Positions 460 to 16,280 of a DNA stretch of 17,664 nt are shown piece after piece. The DNA lies in assembly GCA_963665275.2 (NCBI GenBank), contig CAXXIN010000011.1:1-17664 (forward strand), given 5' to 3'. The position numbers were made by a program, and so were the translations under genes. Origin of the DNA: Negativicutes bacterium (GTDB taxonomy: Bacteria > Bacillota > Negativicutes > UBA1444). Within the stretch, counting starts at the first letter, position 1, and each line of letters begins with the position of its first letter. Below the pieces are notes generated by a model that was not told the DNA's origin, did not search any database, and saw nothing but the letters and a program-made list of their open reading frames with translations.

Positions 460-1035
460 GTGCTGGATTTGGAATTGCTGCAGGCAATCAAAGAACGACG
501 GACGATCCGCAAATTCAAGTCGGATCCGGTTCCACGGGAACTATTGGAAAAGCTTATTCAGGAGGCCATGTGGGCTCCCTCGGCGATGAACGAACAACCT
601 TGGAAATTTTATGTACTGGCCGGGGCGGCAAAAGAAGGCTTGGTTAATATTGCTGAAGGTTGCATTGATAAGTTGGATTTGCGAATGCAAAAACTTTTCA
701 ATGACAAAATGCGGACACTGGTGCGTGGATATTTCAAAAATTTTGGCGGTGCGCCTGTTGTTGTTGCGGTTGTTACAAAGATGCCGGAAGAAAGAGTCTA
801 CCAACGAGGAAGCGAATACGGTTCAAGCGCTGCCATGCAAAATTTTTTGCTGTTGGCGCACGAAGCTGGATTGGGAGCTTGTTGGATGACCGGTCCATTA
901 TGGGTGGAAGAGGCCGTGCTGGAATATTTGGGTTGCCCGGGCTGGGGGCTGATAAGCCTAACCCCGGTTGGTTGGCCGGATCAATCGCCACCAACGCCGC
1001 CACGCAAACATCTAACAATTGAATGGCTAGGGTGA
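460..1035 (+). CDS. Nitroreductase family flavoprotein
   Basis: Motifs IKERRTIRKF, AMWAPSAMNEQPWKF and AMQNFLLLAHEAGLGACW. AGGAGG at 455-460 suggests the true start may be the in-frame TTG at 469. Confidence 0.9.
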   Translation: MLDLELLQAIKERRTIRKFKSDPVPRELLEKLIQEAMWAPSAMNEQPWKFYVLAGAAKEGLVNIAEGCIDKLDLRMQKLFNDKMRTLVRGYFKNFGGAPVVVAVVTKMPEERVYQRGSEYGSSAAMQNFLLLAHEAGLGACWMTGPLWVEEAVLEYLGCPGWGLISLTPVGWPDQSPPTPPRKHLTIEWLG

Positions 1036-1070
1036 TGCAAAATAGCATCGAGGTCTGCAGAAGCGCATCG
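1029..1070. promoter_or_regulatory. Candidate tandem enhancer (UAS) sites TGC-N6-GCATCG for a sigma54 activator
   Basis: GATGC-aaaata-GCATCG (1034-1050) and CTGC-agaagc-GCATCG (1055-1070) lie 20 bp apart. A third copy, GATGC-gaatgg-GCATCG, is at 1151-1167. All are upstream of the sigma54 promoter. Function is inferred. Confidence 0.45.
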
Positions 1071-1141: not shown

Positions 1142-1185
1142 CAAGAGGGTGATGCGAATGGGCATCGCCCTCTTGTTTTGTTTTT
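1142..1185 (+). terminator. Intrinsic terminator after nitroreductase
   Basis: 14-bp stem CAAGAGGGTGATGC / GCATCGCCCTCTTG (one G-U pair), 6-nt loop, followed by TTTTGTTTTT. Confidence 0.8.
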
Positions 1186-1219: not shown

Positions 1220-1236
1220 TTGGCATGGTAATTGCA
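1220..1236 (+). promoter_or_regulatory. Sigma54 (-24/-12) promoter
   Basis: TTGGCATGGTAATTGCA matches TGGCAC-N5-TTGCW with exact GG-N10-GC spacing (GG 1222-1223, GC 1234-1235). It is intergenic, about 100 bp upstream of the CoA-transferase start. Confidence 0.85.
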
Positions 1237-1267
1237 ATATAAAGATGATGAAAAAGCATAGTTGAGT

Positions 1268-1285
1268 TTGTGATGGTTTTCACAG
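1268..1285. promoter_or_regulatory. Rex-like or Crp/Fnr-like operator
   Basis: TTGTGATGGTTTTCACAG contains a perfect TGTGA-N6-TCACA and matches 12 of 14 defined positions of the Rex box TTGTGAA-N4-TTCACAA. It lies downstream of the predicted transcription start. Confidence 0.55.
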
Positions 1286-1338
1286 AGAAGCCAAGCGGAT
1301 TATCCGGGTTTTCTTTAAAAAACAGGAGGTGGAGTTCG

Positions 1339-2926
1339 TTGAAAAATAAGATCATGACGGCGGAAGAAGCTGTAAAACTCATCAAACCGGGCGCGACGGT
1401 GGCTGTGAGCGGCTTCATCGGCATGGGGCATCCCGAAGAAATCTCCAAGGCGGTGGAAGAGAGTTTTTTGAAAACCGGAACCCCCAACAATCTGACGCTG
1501 ACCTACGGCGCCTCCCAGAATGACGGCAAATCGAACTGGGGACTCAATCGCTGGTGCAAAGAAGGGACTAATCAGTAAGATCATCGCCGGCCATTTCAAT
1601 TTGCAGCCGGACATGGTCAAGATGATCAACGCCGAACAGTGTGAAGCCTACGCAATTCCCCAGGGCGTCATGATGCATTTGTACCGGGCCATTGGCGGCA
1701 AAAAACCGGGCGTCATCACCCATGTCGGGCTGAAAACTTTTGCTGACCCCCGCGAAACCGGCGGCCGCCTGAACAAGCGCTCGACCGGCGAAGTGGTCAA
1801 ACTCATTGAGCTCGAAGGCCAAGAATACCTCTGGTACAAGTCGTTTCCCGTTGATGTGGCGATTATTCGCGGCACGACTGCCGATGAATTTGGCAACGTC
1901 AGCATCGAGAAGGAACCGATTCGTCTGGAGTTTTATGTACAAGCTCTGGCTGCCAAAAATTCTGGTGGCAAAGTTATCGTTCAGGTCGAACGAATTACCC
2001 AGACAGGTTCAATCGATCCTCGAAATGTTGTTGTGCCAGGAACCTTGGTTGATGCAATTGTAGTCGCTAAGCCGGAAAATCATCCGCAAGCCATGGGAAT
2101 GGCGGCTGGAGAATATGATGGTTCCCTAACCGGTGATGTCCGGATGCCGATGTCGGCATTCAAACCGATTCCTCTGGATGATCGAAAAATCATTTGCCGT
2201 CGCGCAGCCATGGAATTGGCTCCCGAAGCAGTAATTAATCTCGGTATTGGCATGCCGGAGGGAGTATCGTCTGTTGCAGCCGAAGAAGGAGTTATCGACC
2301 TGTTGACGGCGACAGTGGAACCAGGGTTGATCGGCGGAATCCCTTGCGGCGGTTTGCGTTTTGGCTGCGCAATCAATCCGTTGGCGATCATTGATCATCC
2401 CAGTCAGTTCGATTTCTATGACGGCGGCGGCCTCGACTTTGCTTGTTTGGGCATGGCGGAATTGGACGAGATAGGCAATGTAAACGTGTCAAAATTTGGT
2501 CCGCGTATTGCTGGTCCCGGCGGATTTGTTAATATCACTCAAAATGCCAAGAGTGTGGTATTTTGTGGTACATTGACTGCTTCGGGATTGGAAGTCGCTA
2601 TCGAAGATGGAAAATTGAAAATTATCACTGAAGGTAAAGCGAAAAAAATGGTGCCCAAAGTCGGCCACGTCACATTTTCCGGCGAATATGCCAGGGAAAA
2701 AGGCCAGAAGGTTCTCTATGTCACCGAACGCGCCGTATTTGAAATGCGTCATGAAGGGTTGACCCTGATCGAGATCGCGCCGGGAATGGACCTGGAGAAA
2801 GACATTATTGCCCAGATGGATTTCAAACCGCACATTGCCAAAGACCTTAAGTTGATGGATGCCCGGATATTCCAAGCAGGGCCGATGGGAATCAAAGATG
2901 AGATCCTGGCTAAAAACGGCAAGTAA
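1339..2926 (+). CDS. pct: Family I acyl-CoA:acetate/propionate CoA-transferase (Pct/YdiF type), about 528 aa; apparent +1 frameshift at 1564-1566
   Basis: TTG start at 1339 after AGGAGGT. Removing one G at 1564-1566 joins ORFs 1270..1578 and 1520..2926 (KEGLISKIIAGH). Motifs: GLKTFADPR, IIRGTTADEFGN, NLGIGMPEGV, catalytic VEPG, FDFYDGGGLD, GPGGFVNITQ, YVTERAVF. Substrate unknown. Confidence 0.85.
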
Positions 2927-3002
2927 TTAACGAGAAACCCATAATCTATTTCAGGGACTATTGTGGCACGGCCACACAAAATAAAAAGGGGGAAAAACAA
3001 CC

Positions 3003-4469
3003 ATGATGATGAATGGAAAACAGTACATCGAGAGTCTCAAAAAAATGCGGCCCAATATTTACAAGTGGGGAAAACTGATCGAAGATGTTACCACCAATCC
3101 GGCCACTGCGCTGCATGTCAAATCAGTCGCCCGCTCCTATGACCTATCGTTTGATCCGGAGAAAGCACCGATTTACACCACCAAGTCGACCATCTCCGGC
3201 GAAACTATCCATCGCTGGAATTCTTTCCAGGGCGATATGGAAGCGCAGATCGGCAATGCAACGATGAAACGCGACCAATACCACCAGTCTGGAACCTGCC
3301 AGGGCGCGACTTGCGCCGGCTGGACCGGCCTCAACACTCTTTGGGATGCCAGCTTCGAATGTGACAAAGAGCTGGGAACCAACTATCATGAGCGTGTTAA
3401 AAAATTCATGAAGTTCTGCGAAGACAATGCTCTGGCTTTGGCCGGCGCCATCACCGACGCCAAAGGCGATCGTTCCAAGAAAGCTTCTCAGCAGGCTAAC
3501 AAAGACGTTACTCTACATGTTAAAGAAATTCGTCCTGATGGAATCATCGTTCGCGGTTACAAGATCCAGATCTGTGGCGTGGCCGCTTGTCATTACATCG
3601 TTGCGATGCCGGGCACCGGTTACGGCGAAGTGGACAAAGACTTCGCAGTAGCTTTTGCAGTTCCCCGAGATGAAAAAGGAATTACCATCGTCGAGACTCG
3701 TCGCCCCAGCGATTGCCGTGATGAAGAAGAAGGTTTCGACGCGCCGAAGGCCGGCAACATTACCCAAGCATATATTCTGTTTGATGATGTATTCATCCCG
3801 AACGAGCGCGTATTCATGTGTGGCGAGTTCAAGTACAGCGGTCGCAATATCGGCAATTTTGCCGCTATCTACCGGGCAGCCATCGGTTCCTGCGTAGCTG
3901 GGCAAGGCGATATCATGATCGGCGCCGCCATGGGCATGGCTCGTGCGAACGGCCTTTCCGTCAAGCCCTTCCAAGCCACATTGAATGAGATGGCTATCAA
4001 CAATGAAATTACAGCCGGCCTCGGTATCGGCGCCATGGCGGTTGGCAAGAAGCAAAAATCCGGGTTGTTTGTGCCGAATGCCCTGTTGGCCCACACCAAT
4101 AAGACGCAAGTTGCCAAATTGCCATACCTGAACAAAGTTATGGCTCAGGACATCAGCGGCGGCATTGCCGAAACCGGCTGCATGCCGTCCTACAAAGATC
4201 TGCAAAGCCCAATCTATGGCAAAAAATTGATTGACGCTCTCACTGCCGGCGCTGATGGCGCGAGCCGCGCCAAGATGGCTCGTCTGGTCGAGTGGTTAAC
4301 TGTCGGCGGCGGCATCCCGGGCTGCATGCATGGCGGCGGGTCGCCTGACGGCGCGAAAATGGTCGTCAAAGCGTTTACCAAGTGGGAAGACTATTTTGAA
4401 ATGGCCAAGAAAATCATGGATGTGCCGGTTGATGCGATCAAAGAACCCGAAGCACCTGTGAAAAAATAA
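3003..4469 (+). CDS. 4-hydroxybutyryl-CoA dehydratase (AbfD) / 4-hydroxyphenylacetate 3-hydroxylase family protein, divergent active site
   Basis: 488 aa. Family motifs YIESLKKM, GAITDAKGDRSK, DGIIVRGYK, FDDVFIPNERVFMCGE, QDISGG, MHGGGSP. Three AbfD-type cysteines (C99, C104, C297) are retained. Confidence 0.85.
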   Translation: MMMNGKQYIESLKKMRPNIYKWGKLIEDVTTNPATALHVKSVARSYDLSFDPEKAPIYTTKSTISGETIHRWNSFQGDMEAQIGNATMKRDQYHQSGTCQGATCAGWTGLNTLWDASFECDKELGTNYHERVKKFMKFCEDNALALAGAITDAKGDRSKKASQQANKDVTLHVKEIRPDGIIVRGYKIQICGVAACHYIVAMPGTGYGEVDKDFAVAFAVPRDEKGITIVETRRPSDCRDEEEGFDAPKAGNITQAYILFDDVFIPNERVFMCGEFKYSGRNIGNFAAIYRAAIGSCVAGQGDIMIGAAMGMARANGLSVKPFQATLNEMAINNEITAGLGIGAMAVGKKQKSGLFVPNALLAHTNKTQVAKLPYLNKVMAQDISGGIAETGCMPSYKDLQSPIYGKKLIDALTAGADGASRAKMARLVEWLTVGGGIPGCMHGGGSPDGAKMVVKAFTKWEDYFEMAKKIMDVPVDAIKEPEAPVKK

Positions 4470-4486
4470 TATCTCTCCGATTCGGA

Positions 4487-4547
4487 CCACGTCGCCTGGA
4501 GCACTGCACCCGCTTAGGGCGGGGCGGAGACTCCGGGCGATGCGTGG
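4487..4547 (+). other. Long GC-rich stem-loop downstream of the AbfD-like gene
   Basis: CCACG/CGTGG, TCGCCTGGAG/CTCCGGGCGA and CCCGC/GCGGG nest into one 61-nt hairpin. There is no U-tract, so it may be an mRNA stabiliser, processing site or repeat. Confidence 0.55.
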
Positions 4548-4765
4548 CCGGGATAAAAATTCGGTGATTTTTGGCCGAATATGTGAAAAAAAGCACAAAA
4601 ACTCCGTGGGCAATTTGTGAACATGGGGAACAGAAAGAAAACTTGATTCCGATGAAGTTCCCCAAAAGTTCAGCTCCGAATTTCGGTGAAAATCCGAATT
4701 AGAGACTTTGTGCAGCAAAACCGAAATTAAATTGTATAAAATTAAAAAAATGGAGGAAGATTAGA

Positions 4766-5917
4766 ATGCAATTTTTTCAATTCAGCGAAGAACAGGAAAT
4801 GCTGCGCAAAGCAGTACGGGAGTTCGTAGAAGCGGAAGTGGCGCCCAAAGCCAAAGAGTGGGACGAGAATGACGTCTGCCCGGTAGAACTGTTCCCGATG
4901 ATGGGCGAACTGGGAATCTCCGGCGTGTTTGTGCCGGAAGAATACGGCGGCGCCGGCCTCGGCCATGTCGAACGCGCCATCGTTCTCGAAGAAATCTCCC
5001 GGCATTCGGCCGGTCTCGGTATAGCCCTGATGACCCATCACCTGGGCATCGCCGCCATCCTCTACTATGGCAACGAAGAACAAAAGAAACGCTATCTGCC
5101 GGACCTGTGCTCAGGCAAAAAAATCGGCGGCCTCTCGGTCACCGAACCGGGCGGCGGCTCCGACTTCATGGGCCAGAAATCCACCGGCGAACTCAAAGAC
5201 GGCAAATGGGTTTTGAACGGCCGCAAATGCTTCATCACCAACTCCCATATTTCCAACGTCGACGTCTGGACCGTCATCACCGGCCAGGACGAAAAAGGCC
5301 GCCCGGTCATGACCGCCTTCATCATCGACGGCGACGCCGCAGGCCACGCCCCCGGCCGCAAAGAACACAAACTCGGCCTGCGCGGCTCGGTCACCGGTGA
5401 CGTCGTCTGCAACAACGTAGTGGTCGGACCCGAACAAATGCTGCAAAAACTCGGTTCCGGCGCCAAGATTGCCATGACCACCATTCAGGAAGTCGGCCGG
5501 GCCGGCATGTCCGCCATCTGCGTCGGCATCCTGCGCGGTTGCATCGAAGAAGCCGTCAAATTCTCCAGCGAACGGATTCTTTATGGCAAGCCGCTCAATA
5601 AAATTCAAGCGATCCAGATGATGATCGCCGAAAACCGGGTCGAGTACGAAGCAGCCCTGCTGCTGACCTACCGCGCAGCCGGCATGAAAGACGCGGGTCT
5701 GCCCTGCGCCACCGAATTCGCCATCGCCAAATACTACGCCACCGAAGCCTCCGTACGCTCAGCCAAGCGGACCATGGACTCCATGGGGGGTTACGGCATC
5801 GTCAACGAATATCCGGTCGGCCGGTTCCTGCGCGACGGCCTGGCCTCGATCCCCTCCGGCGGAACCTCCCAGGTCCAGCTGCTAATCACCGCCGGCGCCA
5901 CCCTCAGCGGGAAGTGA
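4766..5917 (+). CDS. Acyl-CoA dehydrogenase family flavoprotein (lacks canonical catalytic Glu)
   Basis: GGAGG RBS. Motifs VPEEYGGAG, SVTEPGGGSD, LNGRKCFITN, KLGLRGS, MGGYG. C-terminal IPSGGTSQ where IYEGT is typical. Confidence 0.92.
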   Translation: MQFFQFSEEQEMLRKAVREFVEAEVAPKAKEWDENDVCPVELFPMMGELGISGVFVPEEYGGAGLGHVERAIVLEEISRHSAGLGIALMTHHLGIAAILYYGNEEQKKRYLPDLCSGKKIGGLSVTEPGGGSDFMGQKSTGELKDGKWVLNGRKCFITNSHISNVDVWTVITGQDEKGRPVMTAFIIDGDAAGHAPGRKEHKLGLRGSVTGDVVCNNVVVGPEQMLQKLGSGAKIAMTTIQEVGRAGMSAICVGILRGCIEEAVKFSSERILYGKPLNKIQAIQMMIAENRVEYEAALLLTYRAAGMKDAGLPCATEFAIAKYYATEASVRSAKRTMDSMGGYGIVNEYPVGRFLRDGLASIPSGGTSQVQLLITAGATLSGK

Positions 5918-5923
5918 TCTGAA

Positions 5924-6763
5924 ATGGGACTCTCCATCGCTGTATGCATCAAACCGGTGCCGGACCCCAAACACTATGACAAAATCAAAATCGATCCGGT
6001 CAAGAAAACCGTAGTCCGGGAAGGAATTCCCACCATCCTCAACCCCTGCGACAAACACGCGCTGGAGGCGGCCCTGCAATTGCGGGGCCCCGAAGGCACA
6101 GTCACCGTCATCGCCATGGCCCCGCCAAACGCCGAAGAAACCCTGCGCGAGGCTCTCGCCATGGGCGCCGACGCGGCCGTTCTTCTCACCGACCGCGCCT
6201 TTGCCGGCGCCGACACCTGGGCCACCTCCCATACCCTTGCCGCCGGCCTGAAAAAAGCCGGCAGCTTCGATATCATCTTCACCGGAACCGAAAGCGCCGA
6301 CGGCGCCACCACCCAGGTTCCGGCCCAACTGGCCGAATGGCTGGATTGGCCCCATCTGTGGAACGTAGTGAAACTCGAGCAAATCGACGAACAGCACCTG
6401 AAAGTCAAAACCAAAGCCGAAAGCGAATGGTCCGACTACCAGGTAACCCTGCCCTGCCTGCTGGCCATGTCGCGGGAGGCGAACAAACCAAGACTGACCA
6501 GCCTGATGGGGGTCATGAAAGCAAAAAAGAAACCGCTCACCGTCTGGTGCAGACCGGACCTTGACGTCGAAGACGCCGCTCTCGGCATGAAAGGGTCGCC
6601 GACCCAGCCGGGGGCGATCTTTGAACCGGAGATGGGACGCAAAGGCATCCTGATCGGCGGCGACAGCGAAGAAATCGCCGTCCAGCTGATCGAAAAACTG
6701 AGAACCGCAGGCATAGCGATAGAAACCGGCGACATCTGCGCACCGGGAGGGGGAGGACGATGA
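5924..6763 (+). CDS. etfB: Electron transfer flavoprotein beta subunit (FixA family)
   Basis: IAVCIKPVPD, NPCDKHALEAA, ALAMGAD, DRAFAGADTWATS, DGATTQV and GSPT motifs. Confidence 0.92.
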   Translation: MGLSIAVCIKPVPDPKHYDKIKIDPVKKTVVREGIPTILNPCDKHALEAALQLRGPEGTVTVIAMAPPNAEETLREALAMGADAAVLLTDRAFAGADTWATSHTLAAGLKKAGSFDIIFTGTESADGATTQVPAQLAEWLDWPHLWNVVKLEQIDEQHLKVKTKAESEWSDYQVTLPCLLAMSREANKPRLTSLMGVMKAKKKPLTVWCRPDLDVEDAALGMKGSPTQPGAIFEPEMGRKGILIGGDSEEIAVQLIEKLRTAGIAIETGDICAPGGGGR

Positions 6764-7800
6764 AAACGACAACTCCCGCCGACTGGAAAGGCATCCTGGT
6801 CGTCGGCGAACTAAGCAACTGCCGGGTCCAGCCGGTCAGCCTCGAACTGATCGGCAAAGCCCGTGAACTAAAAACAACCTGCCCGGCCGTCGGCGACGTC
6901 GCCGTCGCGCTGATCGGCAGCGGCCTGGACGGCGCTTGCGCCGAACTGGCAGCCACCGGCGTCGATGAAATCGTCGTTGTGGACCAGGCGAACCTCGCCC
7001 TATTCCACAACGACCTGTACGCCAAGATCCTGCAACAAATCATCGAGACGCGAAAACCCTCGGTCGTGCTGTTCCCGGCCAGCGCCCGCTACCAGGACCT
7101 GGCCTCGATGCTGGGCATCCGGGTCGATACCGGCGTCGCCGCCCACTGCGTCGATATCCGGATCAATGAGCGGGGCGAAATCCTGGCGGTAGTACCGGCC
7201 TTTGGCGGCAAAGTGCTGGGCGACATCCTGTGTCCGGCCCACCGGCCGCAGATGGCCACCGTCAAGCCGGGGATCTTCCGGCAAGGCGAGCCGGTTAGCG
7301 GCCACCAACCGAAGATAAGTCCGTTTGACGCCGGCGCAATCATTGCTGGTGCAATGAAGACCACCCGGATGGTGGCGCTGGAGGCGTCAAGCTGCGCGGC
7401 GCCGGAAGGAATTCCGCTGGAAGCGGCCCAGGTCGTGGTTTGCGGCGGCTGGGGGATGGGGTCGAAGGAAAACTGGGCTCTGCTCGGTGAACTGGCGAGT
7501 CTCCTCGGCGGCGCGGTCGGCTGCACAAGGCCGGCGATCGACGAAGGCTGGATGCCGGACGAGAGCTATATGATCGGCACCAGCGGCAAGGTCATTCGGC
7601 CGAAGGTGTACATCGGGGCGGCGCTGTCGGGCTCTTCGCACCATGTGTGCGGGATGAAGGATTCGGATTTGGTCATCAGCATCAATAACGATCCGCAGGC
7701 GGCGATCTTTGACGTTTCCGACCTCCGGGTCGTCGGCGACGCCAAACAGATTCTCACCGGGTTGATCGCAAAAATCCGGGAAGTGCGTAGCGCAAAGTAA
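6760..7800 (+). CDS. etfA: Electron transfer flavoprotein alpha subunit (FixB family)
   Basis: ATGA overlap with etfB and a GGGAGG RBS. Motifs PAFGG, RPQMATV, VVVCGGWG, LGGAVGCTRPAID, INNDPQAAIFDVSD. Confidence 0.92.
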   Translation: MKTTTPADWKGILVVGELSNCRVQPVSLELIGKARELKTTCPAVGDVAVALIGSGLDGACAELAATGVDEIVVVDQANLALFHNDLYAKILQQIIETRKPSVVLFPASARYQDLASMLGIRVDTGVAAHCVDIRINERGEILAVVPAFGGKVLGDILCPAHRPQMATVKPGIFRQGEPVSGHQPKISPFDAGAIIAGAMKTTRMVALEASSCAAPEGIPLEAAQVVVCGGWGMGSKENWALLGELASLLGGAVGCTRPAIDEGWMPDESYMIGTSGKVIRPKVYIGAALSGSSHHVCGMKDSDLVISINNDPQAAIFDVSDLRVVGDAKQILTGLIAKIREVRSAK

Positions 7801-7846
7801 CCAAGTCATAAAATGAATATGGGAAAACTCAATCATAATTGAGAAC

Positions 7847-7880
7847 GGTGAAGAGGGTTCTGCAGGGGACCCTCTTCACT
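7847..7880 (+). other. Stable intergenic hairpin between etfA and the PAS-MCP gene
   Basis: 14-bp stem GGTGAAGAGGGTTC / GGACCCTCTTCACT with G-U pairs. No poly-U follows, so read-through into the MCP gene is plausible. Confidence 0.55.
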
Positions 7881-7910
7881 GCGAATCCAACAATAAGGGA
7901 GGATTCAACC

Positions 7911-9144
7911 ATGTTTGGACTTTTTGGCGGTAATGACAAGAAGCCGCACTCCCCAGGAATCGCCGGCGAAGCGAAAAATCGGCAGGAAGTTGAACGGATG
8001 CGGCAAGAAAACGCTATTTTGAAGGGCATACAGAGCGCGATGCCAGACCCGTATTATGTGCGGGATATGGACTACAACATCATTCTCTGGCCCAAAGCGA
8101 TTGAGCAGTTGACTGGATACACCGCCGAAGAAGCTGCAAAAACGAAATGCTTTGACTTGTTTAGGGCGGCTGTCTGTCCGCCAAAGAGCGAGTGCCCGAC
8201 GCAGGACTGTGTGGAAAAGAAAAAATTCTTCAAGGATGCCAAAGTGAAAATCTATGTCAAGGATGGTAGCGTTCGAGCCACCCTGGTGTCGAACGCCGGT
8301 GTATATGATGAACAGGGGCGGACCATTGGGGCGGTGGAGATATTCAAAGACGTGACCCAGCTGGATGCCCTGATGAAAGCGATCAATGTTAACTCGGAAC
8401 AACTAAGCGCCGTGTCCGAGGAACTGGCTGCTTCCGCCGAAGAGGTCTCCGCGTTGTCCGGGGAACTGAATCGTCAGGCCGCTCAATCCCATGAATTGAC
8501 CAAGCAGGGCATGAATGCTTCGCAGACAGTCCGGCAAAAATCAGATGACTCAAGCAAGCAAGCCGTCGAAGTAAAGCAAAGCGTAGAAAAGCTGACCGGA
8601 TCGATGTCCGGCAGCATGAAGAATGTGGAACTACTAAAGACCAAATCGGAAAGTATCATTGGCATCGTTGACTCGATTCAGGGGATTGCGTCGCAGACCA
8701 ATCTGTTGGCGCTTAACGCGTCGATCGAAGCAGCCAGGGCTGGTGAAGCGGGGCGGGGGCTTTGCCGTTGTGGCTGATGAAATCCGTAAACTGGCCGAAA
8801 GTTCCAACAATTTTGCCCGCGATATCAAGAAAACGATTGATGAAATTATCGAGGTCATGCACCAGACCACTGATATGATGACAACAACTTATCAAGATTT
8901 GAAAGTTGGTGACGCAGCGGTGCAAAAACTGATTGCGGCAATCGCAGAGATTCGGCAGGCCTCTGAATTGTTGGCGACAGTGGTGCAGAAGCTCGAAGGG
9001 GCGGCGGCGGAAACCGCAAACATCAGTGACCGTCAGAACAATTCAATGACGGAAGTCGCCAAAGTCGGACAGGATCTGGCGGGGATTGCCCAGGAACTTC
9101 AGGAGCGATTCCAAAAAATGCGAAAAACTTCAACGGCGGAATAG
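7911..9144 (+). CDS. Soluble PAS-domain methyl-accepting chemotaxis protein, about 410 aa; apparent +1 frameshift at 8755-8759
   Basis: ATG at 7911 after GGGAGG. PAS region (MPDPYYVRD...GAVEIFKDVT). Signalling hairpin IASQTNLLALNASIEAARAGEAGRG|FAVVADEIRKLAE is restored by deleting one G. No transmembrane segment seen. Confidence 0.88.
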
Positions 9145-9168
9145 AAAACGGCCGATACAAAAAAACGG

Positions 9169-9213
9169 TTCCCGCATTGCTTGCCGCGAACAACGGCCAA
9201 TGCGGGAATTTTT
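9169..9213 (+). terminator. Intrinsic terminator after PAS-MCP
   Basis: TTCCCGCATTG / CAATGCGGGAA stem with inner GCCG/CGGC, followed by TTTTT. Confidence 0.75.
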
Positions 9214-11737: not shown

Positions 11738-12738
11738 ATGTTGAAACGCTTGTTTTTGGTGCTGTTGGTAACTTTAGCCGTGCTGGCTCTCTGTCGGTCT
11801 TTCCTCATCATAGAGCTTCCACTGCCGTACATTGCGGAGAAAAAGGCTGCAGTGGAACTGGCCCTGCGTGCTCAGGCGGTGATCGGTTCCCGGTTGATCG
11901 GGCCGGAATATACGCCGATCACAACCACATTGGCGCCGCAACGGGTCAAAAAAATGTCCTTGCATCCAGATTTTGCTGCGATAACTGTTGAATGGTTAAA
12001 AAAAGCCGGTGTGAAGTCGGGAAACCGGGTGGCGGTGAACTTGTCCGGTTCTTTTCCGGCGTTGAATATTGCGGTGTTGTCAGCGATCCAAAGTGTTGGC
12101 GCGGAACCGATTATCACCAGTTCGGTCGGTTCATCAACCTGGGGTGCTAATGATCCTGATTTTACTTGGCTGGACATGGAGGCTGAATTGCAGAGGTCGG
12201 GGGTCTGGACATGGGCTTCGATTGCTGCTTCGCAAGGGGGAGTAGGCGATCGGGGCGGTGGATTGACAGCGGAAGGCAAAAAGTTGACTCGGGCCGCCGC
12301 CCAACGAAACGCGATCCCCCTTATCGACTCCGCAAATTTGCGGCAATCAATCGAACGGAGGCTTGAGTTGTATCGGGGCCGTGCGGGAGAGTTTCCATCC
12401 GTTCTTGTGAATGTCGGGGGTAGTCATGTAATCTTTGGCGAAGCCGGACATCGCGCGCCGTTGCCCCAGGGGCTGAATATTGGCTATCATCCTCTGCTGG
12501 TGACGCAGGATGGGCTGACCGCTGTTTTTTTTGCAGTCAAATCGGCCGGTGATCCATTTTATCAATATCAGCCAGATTGCTGCTCAATACGGCATTTCCA
12601 GTGAAACCCCGCCGCAAGGGCAGCAAAGCGTTTCGATCACCGAAGTTGCCGGGGTTGATCCGTTTGTTGGCTGGGATTTGGCTGGTTGGGGTCGTGTTTG
12701 TTCTGTGGAAAAATCGACCGTTGTTGCCCAGACTATAA
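11738..12738 (+). CDS. pgsW: Poly-gamma-glutamate system protein PgsW; apparent +1 frameshifts at 12525-12532 and 12618-12620
   Basis: Motifs LIGPEYTPITTTL, VAVNLSGSFPALNIA, SSVGSSTWGANDP, TWLDME, NVGG. Removing one T restores PVIHFINISQIAAQYGI. Removing one G gives a C-terminal TM tail (LIRLLAGIWLVGVVFVLWK) ending TAA 12736-12738. Alternative start at 11717. Confidence 0.8.
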
Positions 12739-12899
12739 AAGAACTTTTTTTCGCGACAGGATTTTGATGATTACGGTCAAATACATATAACTAGAAATAC
12801 ATTACCATGTTATGAATCAAAGCCAATCATGAAAAGAACCATTTGTGGGCGAAAGGCAAAAAAGTGCAAACTGTTTGCGTCGCTGAACAGGGGGACAGT

Positions 12900-13429
12900 A
12901 TGAAAAAATTGGCAATATTGTTGTTCGCGACCTTGTTTGATGTTCGTATCCACAGAAAACACACTGGCTGCGACTAAACCGACCCGGCTGTTGGAAGTGT
13001 TTCGAAAGCCGGGCGTCAACTTCAGTCAATTCAAATCGATTGGCGATGAAATTATAGTCAGCATCCGACCGGTGGGGGCTTCTTTCTTTGATAACAGCGA
13101 CCCATTCTTGCGTCAGCGGATCAAGGAAATGACGATTCAGGCGGCCAAACGGCAAGGTTGGGCGCCGACCGACAACTCCAGCGCCGATGTCCGACTCTCG
13201 GTCAAAATTACTGAATGGGGCCGGTTTCGCAATAATTATGATCAGAATCTGATGGAATTCTTGGCCATTGAAGTCAAGGCATATTCGCGGGGAAAGCGGC
13301 GATATGGTGATGTGCGCGGGAGGACGTTACAGTCGGGTTGATCCAGCGGAAGAATCAATGGGTGCAATGAACGCCGAGTTCATTTCGCTCATGGCCGAAA
13401 TATTGATGGCGTTGAAGACCAATGACTAA
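12900..13429 (+). CDS. Secreted hypothetical protein, about 175 aa; apparent +1 frameshifts at 12936-12938 and 13289-13292
   Basis: ATG at 12900 after AGGGGGA. Deleting one T gives signal peptide MKKLAILLFATLLMFVSTENTLA joined to ORF 12937..13341. Deleting one G extends the frame to TAA at 13427-13429. The 3' end is less certain. Confidence 0.6.
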
Positions 13430-13472
13430 CCGGTTGTAGCTTCAGCATAGGGTTTGAACGGGAGGAGACAAC

Positions 13473-14487
13473 ATGATGGAAAAGCGCAGACTGGGCCGGA
13501 CTGAGCTGGAAGTTGGCTGCATCGGATTTGGCGCATTGCCGATCCAGCGTTGCACGATGGATGAAGCCGGTGTGGTTTTGAATGCCGCCCTTGACAGCGG
13601 GATTAATTTTGTCGACACAGCCAGGGGCTATTCTGACAGTGAAGAAAAAAATCGGCCACCACATTTCCGGACGGCGTAGCGAGTATATACTGGCGACCAA
13701 GAGCTTCGCCCGGACCAAGGCAGCCATGGCTCAGGATATAGATACCAGCTTGAAACTGCTGCGGACAGAGGTTATCGACCTTTACCAGGTCCCACAATAT
13801 CAAGAAAAGGCCGGAGTTGGAGGTTGTGCTCGGGCCGGGCGGTGCGCTGGAAGCGCTGAAAGAAGCAAAACAGGCCGGAAAAATAAAACATATTGGGATC
13901 ACCGGACATGACTATGATCTTTTGGTTGAAGGAATCCAGACTAATGAGTTCAGCACGGTGCAGGCTCCTTTCAACGCAGTCGAACTCAAGGCGCTGGAGC
14001 GACTGTTCCCTTTGGCCCGCGAGATGGATATAGGGCGTATTGTGATGAAGCCGTTGGGTGGTGGGCAGATCGAGAGTAAAATTAACGCGTTGCGGTTTAT
14101 TCTTGGCAATGACATCACTGTGGCAATTCCGGGCATGGACGAAGTCGGGCATGTTCGGGAAAACCTTTCGGCAGCCGACCCGTTTGTGCCGTTGTCCATT
14201 GGCGAAAAAACCGTTTTTAGATCGGGAAGTGGCCGAACTCGGCAAAAACTTCTGCCGTCGTTGTGGCTATTGCATGCCTTGCGTTCAGGGGATCGAAATA
14301 CCGCTGTTGTTTATCTTTCATTTGCAATATGAACGCTATGGAATGCAGCAAGTGATCCCGCAAAAATATGCTGCTTTGCCAGCCAAGGCGTCGGACTGTA
14401 TCGAGTGCGGCGTCTGTGAGACTCGCTGTCCTTACGATATTTCCCATACGGGAGCGAATGAAGCAAATTGCTAAAGATTTGGGATAA
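13473..14487 (+). CDS. Aldo/keto reductase with C-terminal 4Fe-4S dicluster domain, about 336 aa; four apparent +1 frameshifts
   Basis: GGGAGGAG RBS. Motifs GINFVDTARGY.DSEEKIG, ILATKS, IDLYQVHN, GKIKHIGITGH, MKPLGGG, CRRCGYCMPC and CIECGVCETRCP. Extra bases in runs at 13645-13651, 13791-13793, 14214-14218 and 14440-14442. Confidence 0.85.
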
Positions 14488-14500
14488 GGAGGAATTTTTT

Positions 14501-15366
14501 ATGGCAGACCAACTTTTTGACATTGCTGTTATTGGCGCAGGGCCGGCCGGCCTTTCGGCGGCACTGACGGCGCGGGTCCGTAATAAAGCAGTTGCTTTGT
14601 TTGAACACATGGATTTTAGCCCCCAAAACTGCAAAAGGCTCATGCAATCAACAATTACCCCGGCTTGCCGATGACCGCAGGTAAAGACTTGATGAAGCAA
14701 ATGGCCGACCACTGTCTATCGACAGGGCCGACTTTAATCAAGGAAAAAGTGACTAATATCTATTCCGGTGATACCTTCACCCTGCTGACGCCGAATAATA
14801 CTTTTGAGGCCAGGGCGCTGGTGTTGGCTATCGGTGTTAGTAACTCGGCCATGCTTGTCGGCGAAAAGGAGCTGGTCGGCAAGGGGGTTTGTTATTGTGC
14901 GACCTGCGACGGCATGCTGTATCGGGACAAGCCGGTGGCCGTCATAGCCTATACTGAAGAAGGGGAGCACGAAGCCGATTTTCTCGGCGAGATCTGCCCG
15001 GTGGTATATTTCATTCCCCAGTACAAAACTGAATTTGTACCTAAGCAACCAACGGTGCAAATTATGAAAGCCCGTCCCCAGGCTGTGCTGGGCAGCGATG
15101 AAGTGACCGGTTTGCAGACCGATGCCGGGGAATTGAAGGTCGATGGCATCTTTATCCTGCGGCAGTCCGACCCAGCCGAAACGTTGCTGCCGGAACTGGA
15201 GATGGACGGACTGTTCGTGAAAGTGAACAGGGATCAGGCAACCAATGTTCCCGGCGTATACGCAGCCGGTGACTGCACCGGAAAACCTTGGCAGATTGCC
15301 CGGGCTGCCGGCGAAGGTTTGGTGGCGGCGCTGAATGCTATCAGTTTTATCGACAGCAAGAAATAG
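14501..15366 (+). CDS. Thioredoxin reductase-like FAD oxidoreductase (possibly ferredoxin-dependent); frameshift at 14620-14628
   Basis: TAAGGAGG RBS. Motifs IGAGPAGLSAA, NYPG, GVCYCATCDG, TNVPGVYAAGDC. CCCCCAAAA run appears two bases too long (SPKLQKAH is restored by removing them). Confidence 0.85.
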
Positions 15367-15373
15367 CTGACGT

Positions 15374-15406
15374 AAAAAGTGGGGTTGAAAGCCTTTCAAT
15401 CAGCCC
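15374..15406 (-). terminator. Probable terminator between convergent genes
   Basis: GGTTGAAA-gcc-TTTCAATC hairpin. On the minus strand it is followed by TTTTT (A-run 15374-15378). Confidence 0.45.
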
Positions 15407-15425: not shown

Positions 15426-16280
15426 TCACTCGATATTTGCGATCAGATTCTCCGCCATGCCATTCAGTTCGACAGCCATCTCGTTTAGTGCCTGGGTGGC
15501 CTCGGAGACTTGAACCGTAGCAAGGGATACTTGGGCAATCATCGTAGCGATATGCGACATTTGTGCATGGTTGCTTTGATTGTCAGCCTGGATGGCGCGA
15601 ATAATTCCCTCGATATTTTTTATTGAATCAGCCGTAACTCCGGCGAGTTTGCGAATTTCCTCAGCGACTACGCCAAAGCCTCTTCCCTGTTCGCCCACGC
15701 GAGCAGATTCAATGGCTGCGTTCAGCCCCAGAAGATTGGTTTGTCCAGCGATCATTTTAATTAAACCCATCACTTGATCAGTATCTTTTACGAGGTTTTG
15801 CGACTTTTCCAACGTTGATTTCATGGCTTGTCCGGCTGCGGCCATTTCCTCGGTTTGGGCCGAAATTTCTTCTGAAGTGCTGGCAATGGTCTGAATGCTT
15901 TTTCCCATACGGGTGGAGGATTCCTTTAGCGACTCATAACGATGAGTTGACTCGGAAATAGTGACGGCCCCGATTACTTCACCTTTTTCATTCAAAATGG
16001 GAGTTCCTATGCCGACATAGGGAACTCCATATAAAGATGCATCCATCTTCACCGTGACCCGGCGTTTTTCTTGCATCGCACGGTGTAAGGCGCTACCAGG
16101 CTTGATAGTATCACCGGTCTTCACCTTCAAATCCAAGGTGCGAGCCGGACGATAAAAAACTGCCTGTTCCAAATTGCAGACACATACGCCGACATCTGCG
16201 ACCTGCATTTCATTTAATCGAGACAAGGCGTAGATATAGTGGGCAATAATTTGTTCATTGGTTTCCAGACCTTCCGGCAT
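15426..16280 (-). CDS. Soluble methyl-accepting chemotaxis protein (YfmS-like architecture)
   Basis: [47 protein letters not shown] signalling motif, small N-terminal sensor domain ([12 protein letters not shown]...GEVIGAV), no TM segment. Confidence 0.9.

Follow-up and report, generated by a model that had tools for sequence, protein, structure and literature searches.

A candidate Etf-dependent redox module around a divergent AbfD-fold protein in a Negativicutes bacterium

The closest described relatives of the gene cluster considered here are 4-hydroxybutyryl-CoA dehydratase (AbfD) and the complexes that pair an acyl-CoA dehydrogenase (ACAD)-fold protein with a bifurcating-type electron-transferring flavoprotein (Etf), such as Bcd-EtfAB and CarCDE. 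We take the [4Fe-4S] cluster of AbfD to be held by Cys99, Cys103, Cys299 and His292, and Glu257, Glu455, Tyr296, Lys300 and Thr190 to provide its acid/base and hydroxyl-binding functions. The caffeate-reduction (Car) operon includes a CoA-transferase, as does the putative operon described below. ACAD-fold proteins without a catalytic base have also been described: 3-sulfinopropanoyl-CoA desulfinase and the base-less subunits of heteromeric mycobacterial ACADs keep the fold and the FAD motifs, and the catalytic glutamate is absent. We know of no such base-less protein beside a bifurcating-type Etf. At the level of control, passages of PMC6615313 predict acyl-CoA operons of Clostridia that are regulated by sigma54 and enhancer-binding proteins (EBPs), with XanR assigned to abfD and LeuR to hadAIBC-acdB-etfBA. 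Here we analyse a contig from a Negativicutes bacterium on which a divergent AbfD-fold protein (AbfDl) is encoded together with a CoA-transferase, an ACAD-fold protein that lacks the catalytic glutamate (the Glu-less ACAD), both Etf subunits and a chemoreceptor.

The window is the whole of contig C11, 17,664 bases long, from a genome (G000) of 3.97 Mb in 20 contigs that is 92.6% complete. Its closest syntenic loci lie in metagenome-assembled genomes (MAGs) titled Sporomusaceae, Veillonellaceae and Negativicutes. In the labels used below, G stands for genomes, L for loci, X for public contigs and P for proteins. The contig begins inside an island, within an M24 peptidase gene. Reading along the + strand, the 3' part of this gene is followed by a nitroreductase gene, a terminator-like hairpin, a sigma54 promoter, the CoA-transferase and AbfDl genes, a 296-base spacer, the ACAD, EtfB and EtfA genes, a further hairpin, the PAS chemoreceptor gene and a set of poly-gamma-glutamate genes. 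The parts listed in a first-pass annotation of this DNA (CoA-transferase, divergent AbfD, Glu-less ACAD, atypical Etf and chemoreceptor) are therefore all present, and all on the + strand. Its view that the AbfD, ACAD and Etf components deviate at key residues is borne out by the AbfDl signature, the SGG motif of the ACAD and the flavin motifs of the Etf, and we agree that the substrate cannot be read from the sequence.

Judged from the sequences and their genomic associations, we favour, with somewhat better than even confidence, a reading in which the cluster combines the CoA activation of an acid with a redox module that depends on Etf and has at its centre an iron-sulfur flavoprotein of the AbfD fold, one that has lost the dehydratase machinery. 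The chemistry carried out by the cluster is probably undescribed. The window as a whole is best explained as the right-hand portion of an island through which a strictly anaerobic Negativicutes bacterium uses a small organic acid, with sigma54 and a PAS-type EBP in control of the island.

The AbfDl protein and its clade

AbfDl (3003..4469, + strand) is predicted to be an AbfD-fold protein of the FAD/[4Fe-4S] type. It contains the Pfam domains HpaB_N and HpaB and aligns with the AbfD structure 1u8v at 32% identity (E 2e-75), and its AlphaFold2 model (pLDDT 92.8) superposes on the same structure with a TM score of 0.94 and an rmsd of 1.7 Å. The three cluster cysteines at the Cys99, Cys103 and Cys299 positions of AbfD are kept, the first two of them in a CX4C rather than a CX3C arrangement. 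Elsewhere in the active site, His292 is replaced by Tyr290, Glu257 by Gln255, Tyr296 by Ile294, Lys300 by Val298 and Thr190 by Cys191, and a four-residue deletion removes Glu455. Three conserved cysteines (C191, C393 and C441) are new in AbfDl. The resulting clade signature is C99 C104 C191 Q255 Y290 I294 C297 V298 C393 C441.

This signature extends across the clade. We sampled 44 sequences, made up of the window protein, 13 loci and 30 homologues, every fourth one from a list of 120. Q255, Y290, I294, C297, V298, the four-residue deletion and a cysteine after the deletion occur in all of them, and C99 in 43. In a 32-sequence alignment (A1), C99, C104, C297 and C393 are invariant, and C191 and C441 are conserved in at least 90% of the sequences. 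Among the 41 genome loci that make up our AbfDl survey, 39 carry the full signature; of the remaining two, one is truncated and the other could not be assessed. The two canonical AbfD copies of the window's own genome, on contigs C16 and C18, keep every canonical residue.

In the tree, the AbfDl clade sits next to canonical AbfD, to which it is 32-35% identical, on a long branch apart from it. A search of 1.8 billion representatives placed only three full-length clusters (50% level) in the clade, with the score falling from 442 bits to 265 bits outside it. Judged by MAG title, the hosts are Negativicutes, Syntrophales/Smithella, Acidobacteriota, Peptococcaceae, Desulfarculales, Ignavibacteria, Zixibacteria, Dehalococcoidia, Anaerolineales and Aquificota. 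Matches in the ESM Atlas carry generic AbfD/HpaB names only. We found no description of the AbfDl clade or of the module in open-access papers and preprints; one in a subscription journal is possible. The name "4-hydroxybutyryl-CoA dehydratase" is almost certainly wrong for this clade.

With AbfDl in a clade of its own and the active-site residues lost, the first-pass annotation was right to set the cluster apart from the canonical 4-hydroxybutyrate route. It had nonetheless kept a radical elimination or isomerisation for AbfDl, and here we depart from it. Such a dehydratase scheme is disfavoured because every proposed acid/base or hydroxyl-binding residue is replaced or deleted throughout the clade, and because fusions of EtfA with AbfDl, described below, point to Etf-coupled redox chemistry instead.

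The wider AbfD superfamily tree (P0128-P0263) contains many more deep branches with signatures of their own, for example CCSTHGCK, CCSEHKCK and a cysteine-free EH.YK, and to our knowledge none of these has been characterised. One such branch adjoins aldehyde oxidoreductase and CoA-transferase genes in L074-L077. In Syntrophaceae loci, a 640-aa candidate ("cluster 20") that seemed to be a partner of AbfDl or fused to it was rejected, as it consists of out-of-frame open reading frames (ORFs) in GC-rich DNA.

The link between AbfDl and Etf

The gene at 4766..5917 (+ strand) encodes the Glu-less ACAD-fold flavoprotein (ACAD#2), which has three ACAD domains. Its residues 364-366 read SGG at the position where solved butyryl-CoA dehydrogenases have YEG. 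At the alternative base position on helix G, which we take to be the one used by isovaleryl-CoA dehydrogenase, it has a glycine, directly before the arginine of QEVGR. The glutamate within QEVGR was considered as a relocated catalytic residue and rejected: it aligns with the conserved aspartate of ordinary ACADs and not with the isovaleryl-CoA dehydrogenase position, and in L027 and L029 its place is taken by Arg and Asp, respectively. Among the NCBIfam equivalogs AcrC matches best, with 306 bits where the cut-off is 640. Orthologues of ACAD#2 in G011, G010, G020 and G022 (93-64% identity) likewise carry SGG or AGG, and each is followed by orthologues of EtfB and EtfA.

EtfB (5924..6763, + strand) is of the bifurcating type, with a three-residue insertion (PDPKHYDKI) and an altered b-FAD motif. 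According to a passage of PMC9232219, the b-FAD motif of bifurcating Etfs is DGDTAQVGP; the window sequence DGATTQVPA matches it at five of nine positions, and the sequence in the fusion loci described below, DGSTAQVGP, at eight of nine. EtfA (6760..7800, + strand) belongs to a clade that is fused to AbfDl elsewhere and has MIGTSGK and SGSSHH in place of QVGQTGK and SGAIQH. Both subunits are closest to solved bifurcating Etfs, the best matches being CarD for EtfB (E 1e-60) and C. difficile EtfA for EtfA (E 7e-64). The NCBIfam cut-off is reached by none of the five enzymes of the cluster. With these curated cut-offs unreached and no description found in the open literature, the earlier view of the cluster as a candidate undescribed pathway still stands.

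The association between AbfDl and Etf takes several forms. By Pfam, the proteins P0122 (825 aa) and P0144 are EtfA::AbfDl fusions that carry the AbfDl signature, and their EtfA part has the motifs MIG.SGK and SG..HH, as the window EtfA does. A metagenome scan with P0122 returned 25 loci, of which 11 hold the arrangement ACAD-EtfB-EtfA::AbfDl and two more lack only its upstream end. The fusion is a single ORF of about 2.5 kb in all eight of the long loci examined, the ACADs of the fusion loci have AGG or SGG at the YEG position in 13 of 13 cases, and the GC content of these loci is 0.66-0.69. Their flanks hold unrelated genes and no CoA-transferase, and the fusion operon therefore appears to be a self-contained unit. 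Unfused Glu-less ACAD and EtfBA genes adjoin AbfDl in L027, L029 and L032, which come from MAGs titled Aquificota, Anaerolineales and Dehalococcoidales. Additionally, four Peptococcaceae/Clostridia loci (L007, L012, L018 and L023) bring AbfDl together with an Etf of another type, an FeS/CCG oxidoreductase, an EBP and a Cat2-like CoA-transferase, as well as a transporter and an aldehyde oxidoreductase, and contain no ACAD. Taken together, the fusions, the unfused adjacency and the ACAD-free Etf loci indicate that Etf is tied to AbfDl itself.

We are able to propose a mechanism on this basis. The CoA-transferase would make the acyl-CoA, and AbfDl, EtfAB and the Glu-less ACAD would form one Etf-dependent redox complex in which AbfDl acts as an acyl-CoA oxidoreductase and not as a dehydratase. 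Single electrons would pass between AbfDl and the a-FAD of Etf by way of the FAD of AbfDl and a [4Fe-4S] cluster held by cysteines only, NAD(H) would react at the b-FAD, and the Glu-less ACAD would serve as a second flavin partner or an electron relay. The product would then enter a beta-oxidation-like route, for which sister islands encode a canonical ACAD, an enoyl-CoA hydratase, a 3-hydroxyacyl-CoA dehydrogenase, an MFS transporter and an EBP. The PAS chemoreceptor may link taxis to the metabolism of the cluster.

A bolder version of this mechanism, which we consider rather unlikely, would make AbfDl, the Glu-less ACAD and the altered EtfAB a new flavin-based bifurcating or confurcating complex. 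The all-cysteine [4Fe-4S] cluster of the AbfD fold would replace ferredoxin as the low-potential arm, and the electron from the b-FAD would pass straight into an acyl-CoA radical. If this were true, NADH by itself would suffice to drive a reduction or elimination for which an ATP-driven activator is otherwise required.

Several observations weigh against an Etf-dependent redox role for AbfDl in this cluster. No Etf gene is found in the available DNA of 34 of the 41 AbfDl genome loci; when five genomes with such loci were checked, four EtfA matches from three of them proved to be of the canonical type, and the EtfA matches of the other two did not fit the motif search. In a separate survey, which covered the genomes of 41 relatives, AbfDl occurs in seven, an ACAD#2 orthologue in five and both in four. 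The AbfDl-bearing genomes G007, G014 and G025 have no ACAD#2 orthologue, which means that AbfDl can do without the Etf triad. The choice of the fourth cluster-ligand cysteine is a guess, the cofactors not being visible in the AlphaFold2 model. Within the window, the AbfDl and ACAD genes are separated by the structured 296-base spacer and a step in GC content, two genes are out of frame as assembled, and a search of the G000 assembly for the cognate EBP returned none with a helix-turn-helix (HTH) of the VNQSTIVRKM type. Finally, enoyl-CoA hydratase genes are present in 11 of the 41 loci, and would fit a dehydratase-type reaction that yields an enoyl-CoA equally well.

This last point bears on an alternative in which AbfDl is still a radical dehydratase or isomerase, one that acts on some other gamma-substituted acyl-CoA by means of Tyr290 or a new cysteine, with the ACAD and Etf reducing the enoyl-CoA as Bcd/Etf would. 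The retained AbfD fold (TM 0.94) and its three cluster cysteines suit this alternative, as do a gene order like that of the 4-hydroxybutyrate route, the presence of 3-hydroxyacyl-CoA dehydrogenase genes near AbfDl in several loci, and canonical ACAD genes adjacent to it in at least nine of the 41. We hold it to be unlikely nonetheless. The proposed acid/base and hydroxyl-binding residues are gone from all 44 sampled sequences, and the ACAD of the triad, with no base at either known position, would make a poor enoyl-CoA reductase. Furthermore, the fusion connects Etf with AbfDl itself, and the Peptococcaceae loci combine Etf with AbfDl where there is no ACAD to be served. The linear order of activation, dehydration and Bcd/Etf reduction drawn in the first-pass annotation also passes over two features of the relatives, namely the extra canonical ACAD of the sister genomes and the occurrence of the Glu-less ACAD-EtfBA genes as a separate module of higher GC in four of the seven that carry AbfDl.

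Module history, control and neighbouring genes

The ACAD-Etf part of the window has a GC content of 0.60-0.62, against 0.49-0.52 elsewhere, a composition that fits its acquisition from a GC-rich donor. The spacer before it is strongly structured on the + strand, with a long hairpin and a second hairpin at 4482..4580 (predicted folding energy of the RNA -63.9 kcal/mol, z -5.3). The window remains similar in nucleotide sequence to L001, L002 and L038 as far into the spacer as about 4537-4601. The element may serve as an attenuator, may take part in processing or stabilisation, or may be a repeat. Rfam has no match within the window. In L001 and G010 the gene order is CoA-transferase, AbfDl, a canonical YEG-containing ACAD, the Glu-less ACAD and EtfBA; where L001 has 1.3 kb that holds the canonical ACAD, the window has 139 bases (4600-4738). 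Contigs X1 and X9 bridge this junction, so the absence of the canonical ACAD is real in the window strain. A copy of this ACAD with 79% identity is encoded elsewhere in the genome, at C18:48775.

These features give some encouragement to the notion of two unrelated modules, in which the CoA-transferase and AbfDl would belong to one pathway, the higher-GC block of ACAD, EtfBA and chemoreceptor would have been acquired separately, and their adjacency would be meaningless. The rise in GC, the structured 296-base spacer, the canonical ACAD that lies in between in sister genomes, and the position of the triad in G020, far from AbfDl, and in G022, which has no AbfDl of the clade, would all be accounted for. 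The same type of triad, however, adjoins AbfDl in three distant MAGs titled as different phyla and is fused to it in at least 11 metagenome loci, and the window EtfA has the distinctive motifs of the fusion. We therefore regard chance adjacency as quite improbable, and retain the reading of a single module in which AbfDl is coupled to Etf. The CoA-transferase and AbfDl genes have a history of their own: between the window and L035, L037 and L039 (Smithella/delta proteobacterium MAGs) protein identity is 85-95% and DNA identity about 78%, which suggests a recent transfer of the CoA-transferase-AbfDl module between phyla. For the pair of genes as compared between Negativicutes and Smithella/deltaproteobacterial MAGs, protein identity is 85-89%.

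The CoA-transferase (1339..2926, + strand) is a fused family-I enzyme of the YdiF/Pct/FadX-like type; the first-pass annotation had proposed Pct/YdiF. Its CoA_trans domains (Pfam) are joined in one chain, the motifs EPG and GPGGF correspond to the EXG and GXGGF that we take to be expected of the family, and its best NCBIfam match, FadX, stays below the cut-off (413 bits against 750). In the assembly, one G too many in the GGG run at 1564-1566 breaks the gene into two reading frames, 1339-1578 and 1520-2926. The orthologue in L038 is intact, at 539 aa and 91-96% identity, and the genome's three CoA-transferase paralogues have no such break. Of the 41 AbfDl genome loci, 17 include a CoA-transferase of one type or another.

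The second frame break lies in the gene for the chemoreceptor, a soluble PAS-domain methyl-accepting chemotaxis protein (7911..9144, + strand, with its ATG at 7911), whose reading frame is interrupted by one surplus G in the GGGGG run at 8755-8759. This protein has no membrane segment, and its PAS domain contains a cysteine-rich stretch, CPPKSECPTQDC, that might bind a metal or a redox cofactor.

It could be argued from the two breaks that the cluster is decaying in the window strain, with the CoA-transferase and chemoreceptor frameshifted, the canonical ACAD deleted and nothing functional. The loss of that ACAD relative to L001 and G010, across a junction confirmed by X1 and X9, and the cognate EBP not found in the G000 assembly would agree with such decay. 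Both breaks, on the other hand, are a single extra G in a run of G. Contig X1 lacks the G at 8755 and is otherwise identical over 8184-9200, and the X3 contigs lack both extra bases; X3 is another strain, with about 3-7 differences per 100 bases over the stretches compared, and it alone among the runs covers position 1564. The other five genes of the cluster are intact and 84-93% identical to their orthologues, and the genome is 92.6% complete with this contig beginning inside the island. We consider decay highly improbable; homopolymer errors or polymorphisms are the probable source of the breaks.

A sigma54-type -24/-12 promoter, TGGCATGGTAATTGCA, lies at 1221-1236 on the + strand, ahead of the CoA-transferase gene, and agrees exactly with the consensus. 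With one mismatch or fewer allowed, the pattern has two matches in the window against 1.75 expected, so that the pattern alone is not beyond chance. The call is supported instead by conservation in related loci: the promoter is found at the same place in L002 and L038, and L035 and L037 have a different, equally good sigma54 site before their CoA-transferase. The sigma54 control put forward in the first-pass annotation is upheld on these grounds. G000 as a whole has 46 exact TGGCAY-N5-TTGCW sites and encodes many sigma54 activators.

Upstream of the promoter lie two copies of a palindrome, GATGC-N6-GCATC. The distal copy (1034..1049, no strand) is a candidate enhancer (upstream activating sequence, UAS) site. 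The proximal copy (1151..1166, no strand) falls within the terminator-like hairpin of the nitroreductase gene (1141-1176), about 60 bases ahead of the -24 element. Against 0.05 copies expected, the window has two, and the whole 3.97-Mb genome has ten. The palindrome also stands upstream of AbfDl operons in L002, L038, L035, L037, L039, L007, L012, L021 and L023, nine loci that span Negativicutes, Smithella and Peptococcaceae. In L038 two more copies (14754-14860) occur just before AstE-like/CapBC genes, where the window has none; the AstE-like/CapBC operon of that genome may be under the same regulator. A perfect TGTGA-N6-TCACA palindrome at 1269-1284, about 33 bases downstream of the -12 element and present with small changes in L002 and L038, resembles either a CRP/FNR-type site or a small hairpin of the 5' untranslated region.

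Activators with PAS, AAA+ and HTH domains, that is, EBPs, adjoin AbfDl in ten of the 41 genome loci and have the HTH segment VNQSTIVRKM in common. An activator of this kind is encoded in G007 and G010, about 12 kb upstream of AbfDl, and in G011 on another contig. The nearest EBP of G000 (C16:43294-44649) has 47% identity and the HTH sequence QSSIVRK. As the window contig starts inside the island and the left part of the island is not in the assembly, the missing activator is probably an assembly gap. In the same genome, C13 carries paralogous clusters of EBP, CoA-transferase, ACAD and hydratase genes, and C16 has a canonical abfD region with an activator and a palindrome of its own.

The content of a fuller island can be seen in G007. 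There, an EBP, an MFS transporter, an ACAD, a FabD-like acyltransferase, a 3-hydroxyacyl-CoA dehydrogenase, an enoyl-CoA hydratase and an isochorismatase-like hydrolase are followed by two CoA-transferase subunits, an M24 peptidase, a nitroreductase, a CoA-transferase, AbfDl and an ACAD. The NCBIfam names of the peptidase, nitroreductase and isochorismatase-like genes of the sister islands give no hint of the substrate. At the other end of the window, 12600-15400 holds fragmentary ORFs only, among them a piece of an aldo/keto reductase (13817-14332) and the C-terminal part of a pyridine-nucleotide disulfide oxidoreductase (14665-15366); these are either pseudogenes or further frame errors of a small contig. 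The gene at 15426-16280 (- strand) joins an IclR_C-like ligand-binding domain and a methyl-accepting chemotaxis signalling domain in one protein, an unusual architecture for a soluble chemoreceptor.

Implications and comparison with described systems

Databases label thousands of proteins of this kind "4-hydroxybutyryl-CoA dehydratase", and the label enters into the prediction, for anaerobes and sediments, of butyrate formation and of CO2 fixation through 4-hydroxybutyrate cycles. The fusion of Etf with an AbfD-fold iron-sulfur flavoprotein defines a four-protein unit that can be expressed and assayed directly, and that may turn out to catalyse a new Etf-dependent acyl-CoA reaction or to arrange electron bifurcation in a new way. 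Furthermore, the conserved promoter, operator and activator provide a handle for finding the inducing substrate.

In its regulation, the cluster resembles the Clostridia operons of PMC6615313, as far as the passages seen describe them, in having a -24/-12 promoter, an upstream palindrome, a PAS-AAA+-HTH activator and genes for fermentation through CoA esters. It differs from them in its operator (GATGC-N6-GCATC), in the HTH sequence of the activator (VNQSTIVRKM) and in its target genes, and the regulon of the window is absent among the regulons in those passages.

At the level of the enzymes, AbfDl shares with AbfD from Clostridium aminobutyricum (1U8V) and Nitrosopumilus maritimus (6VJR) the fold, the two Pfam domains, three of the four cluster-ligand positions and the association with a CoA-transferase. 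Unlike AbfD, it has CX4C, changed active-site residues, a deletion in place of Glu455, the new cysteines Cys393 and Cys441, and an Etf that is linked or fused to it. The Glu-less ACAD is distinct from 3-sulfinopropanoyl-CoA desulfinase, scoring 182 bits against the NCBIfam desulfinase cut-off of 600. Like Bcd-EtfAB and CarCDE (5OL2, 6FAH), the cluster combines an ACAD-fold protein with EtfB and EtfA of the bifurcating type. Unlike either complex, its ACAD is without the catalytic glutamate, its a-FAD motifs are changed, its b-FAD motif agrees at five of nine positions, and it has a fourth partner, AbfDl.

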